A DNA stretch of 64,000 nucleotides from an uncultured Chloroflexia bacterium. Lineage in GTDB: Bacteria; Chloroflexota; Limnocylindria; Limnocylindrales; CSP1-4. How positions within the stretch are numbered: position 1 is the first letter of the stretch; every line of letters begins with the position of its first letter. The notes under the pieces were generated by a model. That model was not told where the DNA came from, did no database searches, and saw only the letters and a program-made list of their open reading frames with translations. The position numbers and the translations under genes are program-made. Positions 342-18,024 of this stretch are shown in pieces. Where the stretch lies: the NCBI GenBank assembly GCA_963734535.1, contig CAVTHS010000007.1, positions 160,001 through 224,000 on the forward strand. Reading direction: 5' to 3'.

Positions 342-1646
342 TCAGGCGGGCACTGACGGATCGGGGACTTCCACCAGCAGACCATGCTCGGCGAGCCGCT
401 CGGCCAAGGGGTGCAGGTCCGCCACGGGGACCCCGATGATGTCGCTGATGCCGATCAGGTCGTTCGAGCCGTCCGCGTAGGCAAGGAGATCCATCATCGC
501 CCGGACGATGTGGAATGTCTCTCGTGTGCCAAGCGTCGGATAGAGGCCCCGGCGGCCCAGCTGGGGTTCCCCGAGGCACGTGGTGCGATAGACCTTGTTG
601 CGCTCGAGGAGCTCGAGGCAGTCGCGCAGGATGGAGAAGCCGCCCTCGAGCCCGGCAGGCGTGACGAGGTCCAGGTCGTCCAGCGACGTGTGGTACTCGG
701 GGTACTCCTGGTACTTGGAGCGCATCACGGAGACCACGGGCAGATCGATCCCGGGACTGCAGTACTGGCGCTCGTCACTGCCGCGATCCAGGTAGGAGTA
801 GCGGGCAAAGCCGGGGTGCCTGGCGGTCAAGGCGTGGACCGCGACCCGGTCGGCAAGCGTCCCCCCGGTTCGCGACGGCAGGAAGGAGAACGCCCGCTCG
901 TCGCCGATGCAGGTCAGGTTGAAGCCCGCGACCGTGTTGGCCTTCATCTCCCCCAGGTGCGCCTGCAGGTACGTGAGCGATCCGATCGTCTCGGGAATGA
1001 AGACGATCCGGTACGTGAGCCGTCGCGGCCTGCTCGCGATCCATTTCGCCAGCCAGGTGGTCACGACCGGACCCGAGAGCTCGTTGTTGGCCATGGAGGG
1101 ATGGCAGACGTAGGTGGACAGGAGCACCTCCCGGGATGTGGCACCCGGGATGATCAGCTCCCCGTAGGTGAGGGATCCTGCCTTCAGCTCGCTGTCGATG
1201 ACCGCCCGGTATCGCCCGTCCTTCAGCGTCTGCCGCTGCGCGTGGGTCAGGCAGAAGCCCCAGCGTGGCTCGTAGTACGAGGTCACGTAGGGAATCGCGT
1301 CCGGCAGGCTCTCGAGCGAGTGCAGGTGCTCCTGCAACTCGGCCAGCGAAACGGTCGTATCCACGGGCACCGAGTAGCCGACCACGTGGAGGTTGTTGGC
1401 CCGAAAGTCGACGATCCGCTCACCGCGCTCGTCGAGGATGTACGCGTCCCGGATGTTCCATTCGAGTGGCACGGTCCAGTCGAAGACCGGGGTGCCGGAC
1501 GGGACCTCGTGGATCGTCAGGGGTATCTGCTCCCCGATGATCCTGAGCGTCTCCCGCACGCCGTCGCCGGTGATGCTCCGGCAGATCGGGAACAGGCGCG
1601 TCGCCAGCTCGTGCATCGCCGGGCCGCGGTCGTCAGAACCTTCCAT
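342..1646 (-). CDS. DUF4910 family aminopeptidase-like protein associated with polysaccharide biosynthesis
   Basis: '[17 protein letters not shown]', '[15 protein letters not shown]', '[16 protein letters not shown]', '[11 protein letters not shown]', C-terminal wHTH-like '[13 protein letters not shown]'. Confidence 0.85.
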
Positions 1647-2694
1647 CGCGCAGATCTTCCTGGGCTCGACGATAGTCCTCGTGCCGGCCCACGTCCTGCC
1701 AGTACTCGATGATCGGGAAGCCGGCGACGACCTGCCCTTCCTCCAGGAGACGGTGGATGAGGTCGGTCATGTCGAAGCGGCGGCCGCCCGGGATGTAGTC
1801 GCAGGCGCTGGGCTCGAGCAGGTAGATGCCGGCGTTGATGAGGAGCGTGAGGCGAGGCTTCTCCTTCAACTCCGTGACGCGGGCGTCATCGCATTCCACG
1901 ACGCCGAACGGCACCTGCACCTCGTGCACACGGACGCCCACGGTCAGCAACGCGCCGTGCTTCTGGTGGTAGCGCAGCATCTGCGGATAGGACACCCGCG
2001 TGAGGATGTCGCCGTTGATGACCAGGAACGGCCCGCCGGGCCTCTGGATGAGCTTCAGGCCTCCGGCCGTCCCCAGCGGCTGGTCTTCGTTCGAGTAGTT
2101 CATCCTGACCCCGAAGGCCCCGCCGTCACCGAAGTGCCCGACGATGCTCTCGGGCAGGTAGTGGGTGGTGAGGTGCACCTCGCGGATGCCGGAACGCCGC
2201 AATTGCTCGATCGTGCGCTCCAGCAGCGGGCGCTCGCCCACGGGCAGCATCGGCTTGGGCACGTGTTCGGTGAGGGGCAGCAGCCGCTTCCCGTAGCCAC
2301 CGGCCATGATCACGGCCGACAGGTCAGTGCTGACCTCGGCCACGAGGTTCTTGCGGAGGAGGAGGTCGAGGAGCATCCCCGTGTCATCGACCACGGGCAG
2401 ATGGTTGATGTCGTGCTGTAGCATGACCTCGGAGCGCTTCCGCCGCGGAGATGGTGCCGTCGGCGACGACCGGGCTCAGGATGGCGATCGTCTCGCTGGG
2501 TGCGTCGAGCGGGACCTTGCGCAAGATGGCGCGCCGGATGTCGCCGTCGGTCAGGAGACCGCGCAGCTGCGCCCGGGTGCGCACAGGACCAGCGCGCCGG
2601 TCCCCGCCCGGTCGAGTTGCGAGATGGCATCCGCGATCGACAGCTCGGGTGGCGCGATGACGCTGTCGAGGTACTCCTCCTGGGTGGCCTCCAT
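1633..2694 (-). CDS. CBS-domain sugar-phosphate nucleotidyltransferase (LegX/PtmE-like); two apparent frameshifts in the CBS part
   Basis: ATG at 2694 gives [28 protein letters not shown]; CBS '[13 protein letters not shown]' in a second frame; '[22 protein letters not shown]' and 'INAGIYLL' in 1633..2424. Confidence 0.85.
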
Positions 2695-13368: not shown

Positions 13369-15343
13369 TCACGGTCCGTATTGCACGCCGACCACGATGT
13401 CGCGATCGAAGGTGACCGTCATGGTCGCCGTCGCGCCGCTGACGGCGAGCTCCCGGCTGGCCGCCGTGATCCGGTAGCCGTCCGGCGCCCGGATCGTGAG
13501 CGTGAGCGGCTCCGGGAGCATGCCCGGCTGTGCCTGGATGGTGAGCCGGTAGGTCCCGCCGGTCGCGTCGACAGCTCGCCGCATACGGGCTGGTCCACGA
13601 GTACTCGAGGCTCGTCTGGCCCGGCGGGATCTTCAGGTACGTTCCGATCGCCATGCCGTCCAGCCTCGTCCTCCACGACGGCCGGGTCGGTCACGGGCGT
13701 CAGGCCGCCCCCGGAGACCGACTCGACGCGGCTCCGCTCGGGGACCAGCGACCCGGAAGTACATCCCGAGGATGCGGCCACCGACATTCGTCATCGCAAG
13801 GTAGGGGGCACCGTCGGGGGTGTCGACCCGGTTCTCCCACGTCGTCGTGAGCGTGTTCCGGGCGTTGCCGACCGCGTCGATCTGCACCGCGAGATCCATC
13901 GTCCGCGTCGTCCACGCCGTTCAGCTTCGACGCCGGCGCCACGTTCGAGTCGACCGGGTAGACGTAGTCGCCCTGGATCCTGCCGGATCGCCGCCGCCGA
14001 AGCCGCCGTCAGCGGCGAACGCCTCGTCGGTCGCATCGCGGAACCAGGCGAGCAGCAGGTGCTCCTGTCCGATACGTCCCCGTCGCCCCGATGACGTCGC
14101 CCCAGCGACCGAGGCGGCAGCGCGAGGAGGACGCCGAGGAGCTGATCCGCGAACACCGACAGAAACGCCTTCGCGTCCTCGCCGGGCTTCCGGGGCGGCC
14201 CGGGTCAGCTGGAGGACCTTCAGCGTCGTCTCGCCGGACGCGATCGTCACGTCGTAGTCCGGGACGGTGATCGGCCCGGTGACCTTCAGGAGCTCGTCGA
14301 TCGTGTAGGTGGTGATCGCGAGGACCCCGTCGATGCGGCGTCACCCGATTCGTTCGTGTAGAGCCGGAGCGGCGTCCTGCGCGCTCGTCGGGAAGTCCGG
14401 CGACCAGCCGGCGTCCGCGAGCTGCCAGGATTGCGTCGGGCCGAGCAGGTAGTCGGCCAGCTCCTGCGGCGGCTTGACGAACGGGTAGTCGTTCGTCACA
14501 GTCCAGCGGCGAGACGTTCTGGAAGCGGCGCTCGGTGATGCGGCCCTTGTCGAACGCGATGATCCCGTAGCTCCCGATGAATCCGCCGCTGGGACGCAGC
14601 TCCGCGGGGTCCTGCGTCAGGACCAGGTAGCGGCGCGGCCCGTCCCAGCCCAGGATCGCCGGCAGCCGCGCGCTGACCCGCACGTACGCGTCGAGAAGCG
14701 GGCCGTACTTGTCGATCCGCGTCCGCATCGCGTCGCGGACGCTCTCGACCTGCCCGATCAGGCCGTCCGGGACGCTCGCCAGCGCCTGGCGCGCGCTCTC
14801 GACCGAGGCGGCCGCCGACACGGCGCGGTCGCGCGACGTGGCCATCAGCTCCACGAGCTGCGAGAGTGCCGAGGCGTTCTTCGGATCGGCGGCCTGGGCC
14901 TCGCGGATGTCGACGAAGCGACGGCCGAGGGTCAGGCCCTGGTCGACAGCGTCGAGAAGGTCCCCGGCGGCTGCGACGACGCTGTCCGCGCCGCGAACGT
15001 TGGACGCGGTCAGCGGCAGCGCCCGGGCGAGGGCGATCAGCGGGTCGCCGGCCAGCAGGCCGTGCAGCCGGTCGAGGCGCGCTCGGGCGGCGGCCGCGTC
15101 GGCATCCAGCGAGTCGATCGTGGCCCGGTCGATCCCGAGGCCCGCCTCCTGCACACGTCCGACCATCGTCTCGAGGTCTGTCCGCAGCACGCGCCCCTCG
15201 TCCAGTGCGGGCAGGTAGCGGAAGAGCGCGAGCGCACCGACGACCAGGAGGAGGATGACGCCACCGCCGGCCACGATGACTCGGCGGCGCGGGCGCGGCC
15301 GCCTGGCTGCTCCCCGGTCGGCGTGGACTGGGTCGCCCGTCAC
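13369..15343 (-). CDS. DUF4012 domain membrane-anchored extracellular protein; frameshifted in its 3' half
   Basis: N-terminal TM, helical stalk, 'YLVLTQDPAELRPSGGFIGSYG', 'DAGWSPDFPTSA', 'IDGVLAITTYTIDELLKVTGPITVP', C-terminal 'YRLTIQAQPG'. Confidence 0.8.
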
Positions 15344-16005
15344 GTCTTGGGAACGGTGATGACCACGAATCGCGGCGCCGTGGCGTAGTACGACGTCGAC
15401 GTCTGGAGGGTCAGCTGTTCCGTTGGTGTCGGCTGGAGGTACTTCACGGCGTCGAACGGGACCTTTGGCAGGATCTCCGTCACGACGTACGTTCGCGCCG
15501 TCCCGTCGACGAGGTCAAGCTCCACCGTGTCGCCGACCCGGATCTGCCAGAGCGGGAGGAACATCCCGACACGCGCATGCCCATAGATGTAGATGTTCGA
15601 GCCGCCGCCCGGCCACCCGGAGCTCGGGTAGTGGGCCGCCTTCCCGATCGGGGCGTCGATTCCGTCGCCCTCGATGATCGCGAGGTCGATGCCGAGCCGT
15701 GCGATCCGGATGCGGTTCGCCCGGATCCCCGCCCCGAGCGCCGGGCTTGGCGATGGCGGAGCTGCGCTTGGCCCGGCGTCTGGCCCGGAGGCCGTCGGGG
15801 CCACGGTAACGAGCGGCAGATCGCCGAGCGCGGGCGACTCGCTGGCCCCGATCCCGGGTGTCGCGGAAGGCGTCGCGCTGCCGGCGGACCCACCACCGAG
15901 CGCGATCGCGAGACCAATCGCCAAGGCGACGACCGCGAGGGCCACGCCGAAGATGGTCCGGCGCCGGGAACCTTCCCGGCTGGGACGCGGTTCCGATTCG
16001 GTCAT
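15340..16005 (-). CDS. Sortase family protein with Ser at the catalytic Cys position
   Basis: N-terminal TM anchor, 'IRIARLGIDLAIIEG', 'HYPSSGWPGGGSNIYIYGHAR', 'LTLQTSTSY...PRFVV'. Confidence 0.85.
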   Translation of the reverse strand: MTESEPRPSREGSRRRTIFGVALAVVALAIGLAIALGGGSAGSATPSATPGIGASESPALGDLPLVTVAPTASGPDAGPSAAPPSPSPALGAGIRANRIRIARLGIDLAIIEGDGIDAPIGKAAHYPSSGWPGGGSNIYIYGHARVGMFLPLWQIRVGDTVELDLVDGTARTYVVTEILPKVPFDAVKYLQPTPTEQLTLQTSTSYYATAPRFVVITVPKT

Positions 16006-16066
16006 GGCAGCGACTCGCCGGGTCCGGTCACGCCCTCATTCGCGATTGCCCGGCGAACCGCCGCGT

Positions 16067-16591
16067 TCAGCGGTGCGCGGAGGCGAGGCGACGGATGCCG
16101 AGGCCACCGACGAACACGAGGGCGAGGGCTGCGACAGCGAGGGTCCCGAGCGGCGCGTCCTGGGACGGGACGTCTCCCGGCAGCGTCGACGTGTTCGGAA
16201 GCACGCCGCCGGTCGGGCCGCACGATGCATTCAGGACCGCAGAGGCGCTGACGGTTCCAGCAGTCGCCTGCACGTTCCGGGCGACGCTCACGGGCCCGAG
16301 TGTCACCGTCGTGGTGGCCACGCCATCCGCATTGGTGATCGTCGGCGTCTTGTTGACCTTGTCGCCCGTATCTCCAGCGAGGAACGACCACTCGACCGAC
16401 TGTCCGGCGACCGGCGCGCCGTTCGCATCGACGAACGTCGCTGTCAGCGTGAATGGCGTTCCGCAGGCGATGACGCCGGATACCGTCACGGATCCCTTGA
16501 CTTGATCCTGATATCCAAGGGCGGTCATGGACGTCACCAATAGGACGGCCGCGGCCGCGAGACTGGCAACCCACCAAGTCCGGCGCTTCAT
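16067..16591 (-). CDS. Secreted Ig-like (Big_1-type) protein with C-terminal LPNTS + TM + basic-tail sorting signal
   Basis: Signal peptide MKRRTWWVASLAAAAVLL; 'LTATFVDANGAPVAGQSVEW', 'TNADGVATTTVTL'; tail 'LPNTS...LAVAALALVFVGGLGIRR'. Confidence 0.8.
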   Translation of the reverse strand: MKRRTWWVASLAAAAVLLVTSMTALGYQDQVKGSVTVSGVIACGTPFTLTATFVDANGAPVAGQSVEWSFLAGDTGDKVNKTPTITNADGVATTTVTLGPVSVARNVQATAGTVSASAVLNASCGPTGGVLPNTSTLPGDVPSQDAPLGTLAVAALALVFVGGLGIRRLASAHR

Positions 16592-16811: not shown

Positions 16812-17573
16812 TCAGGTGGACCCGAGGTCACCCAGCCGGCGGAGCAGCTCGGTGGCAACCGCCCGGTAATCGTCAGCGGCGCGGCTCGTCGGGGCATACC
16901 GGGTGATCGGCAGGCGCGAGGCCGGTGCCTCGGCGAGGCGGATCGCCTCGCGCACCGACTGTTCCAGGACAACCGGGCCGAACTGCGCCCGAAGCTGGCC
17001 GATCACCCCCCGGACGTGACCGGTCCCGTTCACGCGGCACGCGACGATGCCGAGGAGCTCCAGTCGTGGGTTGACGTGCCGGCGGGCTCGCTCGATCGAC
17101 GCGATCACGCTCGCCACGCCCGAGAGCCCGAGCGCGTGGGCCTCGATGGGGATGACGACTCGATCGCTGGACACGAGCGGCGCTAGCGACAGGTACCCGA
17201 GCGTGGGTGGCGTATCCACGAGGATCAGGTCCCAGTAGTCGGGCAACCGTGCGAAGCCGCGAACGATTGCGAGCCCGGTGTCGTTCCGACCCTTCTCGCC
17301 GGACGGGACCAGGCTGGGGCTGGTTGGGATGAGGTCGACCCCGGGCGCCGTCGAGGCGACCACGAGCTCGGAGGTCCGGATGCCGCCCGCCGAGAACTCG
17401 ACGAGCCCGATCGGCGATTCGCGACCCCCGAGCCAGTCGGTTGCCGAACCCTGGGGATCGAGGTCCACGACGAGCACCTTGAGGCCGCGCTCGGCAAAGG
17501 CGGCCGCGAGGCTCACGGTCGTCGTGGTCTTGCCACTCCCACCCTTGTTGTTCGAGACGGCGATCGTTCGCAC
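16812..17573 (-). CDS. parA: ParA/Soj family ATPase (orphan)
   Basis: Deviant Walker A 'NNKGGSGKTTT', 'VDLDPQG', 'LVDTPP', 'IRLAEAP'; GTG start at 17573. Confidence 0.88.
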   Translation of the reverse strand: MRTIAVSNNKGGSGKTTTTVSLAAAFAERGLKVLVVDLDPQGSATDWLGGRESPIGLVEFSAGGIRTSELVVASTAPGVDLIPTSPSLVPSGEKGRNDTGLAIVRGFARLPDYWDLILVDTPPTLGYLSLAPLVSSDRVVIPIEAHALGLSGVASVIASIERARRHVNPRLELLGIVACRVNGTGHVRGVIGQLRAQFGPVVLEQSVREAIRLAEAPASRLPITRYAPTSRAADDYRAVATELLRRLGDLGST

Positions 17574-17574
17574 C

Positions 17575-18024
17575 TCAGCGATCGCCTTCGATGCGTCGGA
17601 CGACGCTCTCGAAGAAGTCGTCCGCGACGGAGTCGACGCTCGATGGCGTCCGCAGCAGGGGATCCGGCGATGTGTCACTCGGTTGCCGCTGGCTCGCCGT
17701 CGAGGGATCCTGTCCCGGGAGCTCTCCTGCCGAGATGATGGGCAGCTCCAGCGGCAGGCTCGGAGGGGTTGGCAGCACCGGCGCACCGGCCGGGGCCGCA
17801 GGTTCCGGCACCATCGTCGGCGAGGCGGCCGGAAGCGGGGACGACGCGGTCGGAGGAGCCAGCGATACATTCCAGAGCGCCAGCGCGGCCTCGTACGCCC
17901 GCCGCTCGGCGGTGTCGAATGCCGCCGCCTTCGTCGTCCCTCGACCGCGCCTCAGGCGCGCGACGAGTCGGCGGGCAACGGCGCGCCAGCCCGTCGGCTC
18001 ACGTGGGGCTGGCGGGATCGTCAC
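17575..18024 (-). CDS. Hypothetical Pro-rich protein directly upstream of parA
   Basis: Abuts the parA start; helical C-terminus 'VADDFFESVVRRIEGDR'. Confidence 0.55.
   Translation of the reverse strand: MTIPPAPREPTGWRAVARRLVARLRRGRGTTKAAAFDTAERRAYEAALALWNVSLAPPTASSPLPAASPTMVPEPAAPAGAPVLPTPPSLPLELPIISAGELPGQDPSTASQRQPSDTSPDPLLRTPSSVDSVADDFFESVVRRIEGDR

Follow-up and report, generated by a model that had tools for sequence, protein, structure and literature searches.

Here, we describe a sortase-fold protein in which the position of the catalytic cysteine is occupied by a serine residue (Ser203). The protein is encoded in a 64,000-nucleotide stretch of DNA (positions 160,001 to 224,000 of contig CAVTHS010000007.1, assembly GCA_963734535.1; hereafter, the window) from an uncultured Chloroflexia soil bacterium of the order Limnocylindrales. 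The serine codon is not a sequencing error and, as judged by comparison with homologs, serine at this position is a conserved feature shared by many members of a large sortase family, in which serine and cysteine have repeatedly been swapped. We put the probability at roughly one half that the window protein is an active sortase that would use Ser203 as its nucleophile and would be dedicated to the product of the neighboring gene, a small secreted protein with a Big_1 immunoglobulin-like (Ig-like) domain. More tentatively, we suggest that it belongs to a large natural lineage of serine sortases in Chloroflexota and related soil bacteria, which would form an oxyester acyl-enzyme and in which cysteine and serine would be interchangeable, with 7 to 15 or more switches in both directions.

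A sortase with serine in place of the catalytic cysteine

Both sequence and fold place the window protein in the sortase superfamily (MEROPS C60). A match to the Pfam Sortase model PF04203 with 55.3 bits (cut-off 26.6) extends over residues 99 to 217 and covers model positions 1 to 122 of 125. Based on A1, a profile alignment of 111 family members, AlphaFold2 predicts an N-terminal anchor, followed by ~55 linker residues modeled with low confidence and by a beta-barrel catalytic domain comprising residues ~95 to 221, with a predicted local distance difference test score (pLDDT) >94 across the barrel. Foldseek returned 115 matches in the PDB at E ≤ 0.001. The best ones were all sortases, in accordance with the eight-stranded beta-barrel typical of the superfamily, and included classes A, C, D, and E, with a best E value of ~1e-8 and without a clear class preference. 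The ESM Atlas likewise yielded sortase clusters. A helix comprising residues 15 to 37 and preceded by basic residues suggests that the protein is anchored in the membrane and faces outward. Its class is settled neither by the PDB comparison nor by the NCBIfam class models A to F and GN, none of which scored near its cut-off (score/cut-off: sortase_fam 26.3/39.35; class E 26/160; class D 23.2/165; class F 17.6/166; GN 15.7/158).

When the A1 profile is aligned to sortases of known structure, namely 8t28 of class C and 3rcc of class A, the Ser203 column corresponds to the cysteine of their LTLVTC motif, and His143 and Arg212 correspond to the catalytic His and Arg of the same two proteins. Read from the DNA, the nucleophile motif is EQLTLQTSTSYY, in which the codons GAA CAG CTG ACC CTC CAG ACG TCG ACG TCG TAC specify EQLTLQTSTSY. 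Thus, the window protein has TLQTS where cysteine transpeptidases have the cysteine of TLxTC that defines them. The initial annotation of the window had described an intact open reading frame (ORF) for a sortase with serine at the nucleophile position and with the His and Arg residues in place. The Pfam match and the alignment to 8t28 and 3rcc bear this out, as does the codon TCG itself; its position, given as about 15396 to 15398, was off by one base and is 15397 to 15399.

Serine is genuinely encoded and widely conserved

Several types of data document the serine at the nucleophile position. First, among the 120 best protein clusters at 90% identity, the nucleophile column holds serine in 103 and cysteine in 17. 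The His column is His in 120 of 120 of these clusters, and the Arg column is Arg in 109, Lys in 10 and a gap in one. These relatives include identical or near-identical sortases encoded on other contigs (P0002 to P0010; 89 to 95% identity). The change from Arg to Lys (APKF) is present in P0007, P0009, P0012, P0013, and others, including proteins 87 to 92% identical to that of the window. Among the 150 best representatives at 50% identity, the nucleophile column is cysteine in 79, serine in 54, another residue in 11 and a gap in six.

Second, we analyzed 58 DNA loci, comprising that of the window, its orthologs in related genomes (14 loci) and 43 metagenome contigs. Serine is specified by three synonymous codons over 49 of these loci (TCG 30, TCC 17, TCA 2) and cysteine by TGC in six and TGT in three. 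Third, for the codon at 15397 to 15399, sequencing reads were represented by Logan contigs from four runs. A contig from run X1 (1164 nt, depth 9) spans positions 14900 to 15717 with 10 differences from the window, and none of the nine listed differences touches the codon. Because the conversion of TCG to TGY requires two changes, this contig, with at most one unlisted difference, cannot encode cysteine at this position. X1 is possibly the source sample and, hence, not necessarily independent of the assembly. Contigs from runs X2, X3, and X16 represent relatives at 90 to 99% identity and were left out of the codon evidence.

The initial annotation had asked whether TLQTS recurs in homologs with other serine codons, and it does. 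It had also named two findings that would speak for a miscalled cysteine, namely reads with TGC or cysteine in all close homologs; the X1 contig does not have TGC, and the close homologs are predominantly serine forms. Its caution that this part of the assembly is rich in errors is justified for the adjacent DUF4012 gene, which is broken by a frame change and stops, but not for the serine codon.

The related loci are labeled as metagenome-assembled genomes of Chloroflexota, uncultured Chloroflexia or Candidatus Limnocylindrales and, in one case, as Isosphaeraceae. Sortase relatives (E ≤ 1e-10) are present in 70 of 151 genomes of the order, including the genome to which the window belongs (3.2 Mb, 89.9% complete; hereafter, the source genome). 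By family, they occur in 69 of 108 genomes belonging to the family of the source genome and in 0 of 42 belonging to the other family.

Cysteine and serine interchange at a constrained site

For a broader tally, we used 248 near-complete catalytic domains. The nucleophile residue is serine in 148, cysteine in 91 and another residue in nine. The site is, therefore, limited to cysteine or serine in 239 of 248 domains and appears constrained, because a dispensable site would be expected to drift to Ala, Gly, Thr, or Asn. The His is kept in 146 of 148 serine forms and 91 of 91 cysteine forms. The Arg column is Arg in 124, Lys in 17 and another residue in seven of the serine forms and Arg in 90 of 91 cysteine forms; with Arg or Lys kept in 141 of 148 serine forms, the rest of the active site is constrained as well.

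To count switches, two trees were used. A FastTree phylogeny of 239 sequences, from which the nucleophile column had been removed, requires a minimum of 15 changes between cysteine and serine, compared to 69 to 77 in five shuffles of the labels. An IQ-TREE phylogeny ("quick" LG+G4) of 83 closer sequences (every second of the 120 clusters plus P0121 to P0146, with sequences dropped that had ≥12 gaps or neither cysteine nor serine at the nucleophile column) requires seven. The basal clades have cysteine with the serine clades nested inside them, and one cysteine clade lies deep within a serine clade (FastTree support 92; Shimodaira–Hasegawa-like approximate likelihood ratio test [SH-aLRT] in IQ-TREE 97). 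Because serine clades nest in cysteine clades and a cysteine clade in turn nests among serine forms, the switches appear to run in both directions, with several nodes weakly supported and the exact count soft. The closest pairs of a serine and a cysteine form share 92% protein identity over 208 residues and, in DNA, 89.8% identity over the catalytic domain. Among serine forms, the median ratio of nonsynonymous to synonymous substitution rates (dN/dS) is 0.225 (607 Ser–Ser pairs with 0.1 < dS < 1.5; Nei-Gojobori script). Columns that differ between all serine and all cysteine forms were considered as possible adaptations to the switch and rejected as such, since they follow phylogeny rather than the switch.

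The sortase gene is part of a conserved cassette

The sortase gene lies at the center of a three-gene cassette on a single strand, with the Big_1 substrate gene upstream and a DUF4012 gene downstream, the start of which overlaps the sortase stop by 4 nt (Table 1). This order is kept in all five Pfam-annotated related loci (L033, L034, L038, L041, L043). Based on 46 aligned orthologs, the substrate likely starts at the ATG of MKRRTWW, while the mechanically called ORF reaches 16651. The substrate ORF, like that of the sortase, is intact. At the C-terminus of the substrate, LPNTS and a spacer of 10 residues precede a hydrophobic stretch that is followed by RRLASAHR; the sorting-signal stretch around LPNTS is GVLPNTSTLPGD.

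In 43 of the 58 loci, an LPxT[S/D] signal (LPNTS, LPSTS, LPRTS, LPRTD, LPITS, or LPATS) is encoded immediately upstream of the sortase gene. Most of the remaining 15 loci are cut-short contigs or filter misses, and L033, L039, and L043 do show the signal. The motif together with a transmembrane segment and a basic tail is found beside serine sortases in 38 loci. Signals beside cysteine sortases are LPNTS (three loci), LPATS (one), and LPITS (one), and the cysteine locus L043 has GLPNTSADSP. Because cysteine forms adjoin the same signals, the LPxT[S/D] signal is a trait of the family and is not tuned to serine. The suggestion in the initial annotation that the serine nucleophile is matched to LPNTS is contradicted by these cysteine orthologs, which adjoin the same LPNTS/LPATS/LPITS-TLP signals. 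An ORF scan of the source genome for a motif followed by a hydrophobic segment and a basic tail gave 66 loose matches, among which only the Big_1 neighbor in the window has LPxT in a convincing sorting signal.

The substrate contains two Cys residues (VIACGTP and NASCGPTGG), which are partly conserved in the 46 aligned orthologs and could form a disulfide outside the cytoplasm. The sole well-conserved Lys lies in a conserved D-K-[IV]-N segment, and no pilin motif was recognized in the alignment of the 46 substrate proteins. Contigs from the metatranscriptomic library X16 (90 to 99% alike) cover positions ~16016 to 16364, i.e., the substrate and not the sortase; this coverage does not show transcription.

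Intact DUF4012 orthologs have 655 to 726 residues and an N-terminal transmembrane segment and lie beside the sortase in five of five loci. In the window, the Pfam match in ORF 14009 to 15343 covers model positions 1 to 47 of 144 only. In tblastn, four intact orthologs align in one frame down to ~14483 and in another from 14490, and the translation contains in-frame stops (TGA inside) and several Arg-rich out-of-frame stretches. This split gene, the sole DUF4012 copy in the source genome, could be a pseudogene or reflect long-read indel errors. PMC6744442 describes an enrichment of DUF4012 in Gram-positives, Cyanobacteria and Chloroflexi as well as a DUF4012 gene in an exopolysaccharide cluster of Bifidobacterium.

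Some of the cassette loci adjoin genes for glycosyltransferases, a polysaccharide deacetylase, LysM, and VanW proteins, i.e., envelope functions. In the window, an ORF for a ParA/MinD-type P-loop ATPase (AAA_31, CbiA; 16812 to 17870, minus strand) lies upstream of the cassette. Its Arg-rich N-terminal extension of ~100 residues looks noncoding, and the true start is probably further in.

Table 1. Features of the Big_1–sortase–DUF4012 cassette in the window
Feature	Coordinates	Strand	Basis
Sortase-fold gene, 221 residues, ATG start, intact ORF	15340..16005	-	Pfam, profile alignment, AlphaFold2, Foldseek
Predicted transmembrane signal-anchor helix, residues 15-37, RRRTIFGVALAVVALAIGLAIALGG region	15895..15963	-	Model helix and hydrophobic sequence after basic residues
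Codon of His143 (YIYGHAR), catalytic His position	15577..15579	-	Alignment to solved sortases
TCG, codon of Ser203, nucleophile Cys column (TLQTS for TLxTC)	15397..15399	-	Read directly, profile alignment, homolog tally
Codon of Arg212 (APRF), conserved sortase Arg position	15370..15372	-	Profile alignment
Substrate gene, small secreted protein with Big_1 Ig-like domain	16067..16591	-	Pfam Big_1, 37.8 bits
LPNTS sorting motif of the substrate (CTT CCG AAC ACG TCG)	16187..16201	-	Read from DNA
DUF4012 gene, third cassette member, broken	13369..15343	-	Pfam and tblastn

Other sortases in the same and related genomes

A search with PF04203 identified two sortases in the source genome, and both have serine at the nucleophile position. 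Among five related genomes, G024, G090, and the single-contig genome G095 contain only serine sortases, while G098 and G123 each contain one additional cysteine sortase. In the source genome and in G024, G090, and G095, there is, therefore, no cysteine enzyme that could cleave the substrate instead.

The second sortase of the source genome has 238 residues and is encoded at ~80195 to 80911 of contig C14 (L002, positions 1243 to 1959, plus strand). It has the sequence VVLQTSEGP and lacks the Arg in its usual position. It represents a paralogous "LWLQTSEGP/QGP" family found at 12 related loci, in which the serine codon is TCG in 11 and AGT in one; in eight sequences of the QTS[EQ]G type, the Arg column is Lys in four, Arg in two and Glu in two. 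The neighbors of the second paralog encode a thioredoxin-like CxxC protein and a CorA-like transporter, and no adjacent sorting-signal protein was seen.

Proposed mechanism and alternative explanations

Our data are consistent with a model in which the C-terminal hydrophobic segment and the RR tail would retain the exported Big_1 protein in the membrane, and in which the sortase would bind LPNTS. His143 would serve as general base and acid, while Arg212 would hold the substrate and the oxyanion. Ser203 would attack the Thr–Ser bond, giving an acyl-enzyme that is an oxyester and not a thioester. Resolution of the ester by an amine, either of a peptidoglycan precursor or of another surface protein, would result in anchoring, and resolution by water in release. 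Within this model, it is the catalytic role of the serine, the identity of the acceptor and the choice between anchoring and release that we infer. The source genome has four matches to transpeptidases of the penicillin-binding protein (PBP) type, making a peptidoglycan acceptor plausible.

The case for serine as an active nucleophile is based on four observations: The site is confined to cysteine and serine, the repeated switches appear to go both ways, the His and the Arg or Lys are kept, and the sorting signal is kept in genomes without a cysteine sortase. Weighing against this case are the following points. Oxyesters partition more to hydrolysis than thioesters, as known from thiolsubtilisin and subtiligase, and the serine form, even if active, may release rather than anchor its substrate. 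In 11 sister pairs of serine and cysteine forms, no substitution consistently tracks the switch, and no third triad residue was found. Lys replaces the sortase Arg in 10 of the 120 best clusters. The presence of the serine paralog without Arg in the same genomes shows that these lineages tolerate degenerate sortases, and, with the DUF4012 gene broken, the cassette could be decaying in the source genome. Finally, a passage in PMC4827206, citing its reference 26, states that the activity of the SrtA C184S variant "decreased dramatically".

The strongest alternative is that the window protein is an inert pseudo-sortase that binds LPxTS and, possibly in concert with DUF4012, functions as a chaperone, a retention factor or a scaffold without forming a covalent intermediate. 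The C-terminal helix of the Big_1 protein would by itself keep this protein in the membrane. The low activity reported for C184S, the lack of a compensating substitution, the Lys in place of Arg and the paralog without Arg all fit this explanation, and the purifying selection on the serine forms suits binding as well as it suits catalysis. However, a site needed for binding only would not be confined to cysteine and serine, and reversion to cysteine in whole clades would not be expected. Moreover, an inert protein does not readily explain why the His is retained in nearly all serine forms or why the LPxT[S/D] motif, spacer, transmembrane segment and RR tail are conserved even where a cysteine sortase is lacking. 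We regard an inert protein as less likely than an active enzyme. Both options raised in the initial annotation, a serine nucleophile and a catalytically dead chaperone, are still live, and the comparative evidence leans toward the active enzyme.

A special case of the active serine enzyme is a serine protease, or sheddase, that would cut LPNT|S and in which water would resolve the ester, thereby releasing the Ig-like domain. The preference for hydrolysis over aminolysis, which is greater in oxyesters than in thioesters, is in line with this activity, and so is the substrate alignment, in which neither an acceptor nor a pilin-type Lys motif was identified. By contrast, the serine acyl-enzymes of PBPs transpeptidate efficiently, and the cysteine and serine forms share the same substrate and cassette, suggesting the same end product. 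Altogether, pure release appears distinctly improbable.

An assembly or sequencing artifact with TGC as the true codon, for which the frame changes and stops in the neighboring DUF4012 gene might speak, can for practical purposes be dismissed given the serine in close relatives from many sources, the synonymous serine codons and the X1 contig, and because the nearby errors are indels and not two-base swaps.

Implications

If Ser203 is the nucleophile, sortases are not obligate cysteine transpeptidases, and serine enzymes are the sole sortases in some genomes. Nature would, thus, already hold an oxidation-proof, thiol-free sortase. The sortase cysteine is a target in inhibitor design and also the weak point of sortase-mediated ligation, in which it is sensitive to oxidation and alkylation; natural serine sortases would be a possible source of thiol-free ligases. 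The serine family would also make it possible to ask whether a hydroxyl group can be activated as a nucleophile within the sortase fold, and the matched natural pairs of serine and cysteine forms, up to 92% identical, provide material for comparing transpeptidation via a thioester and via an oxyester. If, instead, the serine forms are inert, this would be the first case in which pseudo-sortases that have a conserved client are well documented. The Big_1–sortase–DUF4012 cassette also provides a first functional context for DUF4012, one that is linked to a sortase.

Comparison with known sortases and transpeptidases

The window family has the motif Y-x-Y-[GA]-H-A-R ... L-T-L-Q-T-[S/C]. With class A sortases (Staphylococcus aureus SrtA; 3rcc, 7s56, 3fn5), the window protein shares the beta-barrel (Foldseek E ~1e-8, target TM-score 0.67 to 0.76), the predicted N-terminal anchor and the order of His, TLxT-nucleophile and Arg; in the substrates of both, an LPxT-type motif precedes a hydrophobic segment with a basic tail. 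It differs from class A in having serine, in having one dedicated substrate encoded next door instead of many, and in a signal that is LPxT[S/D]-TLP instead of LPxTG, and its best score with the NCBIfam class models, 26 bits, is far from their cut-offs of 140 to 166. Class C pilus sortases include the SrtC2 enzyme from Actinomyces oris (8t28), which is the top sequence match in the PDB (E 2.7e-21), as well as 2xwg and 6bwe and are the best-scoring solved relatives by profile and fold, barely ahead of classes A, D, and E. As for the window sortase, their genes are clustered with substrate genes; however, the window system has serine at the nucleophile position, and neither a lid segment nor a pilin motif nor a second pilin gene was recognized in it. 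Class E sortases of Actinobacteria (SrtE1, 5cuw; Thermobifida fusca SrtE, 9m4u) have a similar fold, high-GC monoderm hosts and, as in the window family, a signal other than LPxTG. This class E signal is LAxTG and, thus, differs from that of the window substrate, as does the nucleophile, and the class_E model gives 26 bits relative to a cut-off of 160.

The use of either nucleophile in cell-wall transpeptidation has a parallel in the serine D,D-transpeptidases (PBPs), which act via a serine oxyester, and the cysteine L,D-transpeptidases, which act via a cysteine thioester. These two nucleophiles belong to separate families with unrelated folds, whereas in the sortases described here serine and cysteine alternate within one family and between proteins with up to 92% identity.

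The sortase abstracts covered uniformly define these enzymes as cysteine transpeptidases, and in a literature search, in which subscription journals were mostly outside the coverage and an earlier mention is, therefore, possible, we found no natural sortase with serine at the nucleophile position. The closest counterpart is engineered. The C184S variant of SrtA, which serves as a "cys-less" SrtA background in PMC5578623, carries the same substitution at the same position as the natural serine forms. While this laboratory mutant is reported, in the passage cited above, to be nearly inactive, the natural serine forms are conserved, evolve under purifying selection and are the sole sortases in some genomes.

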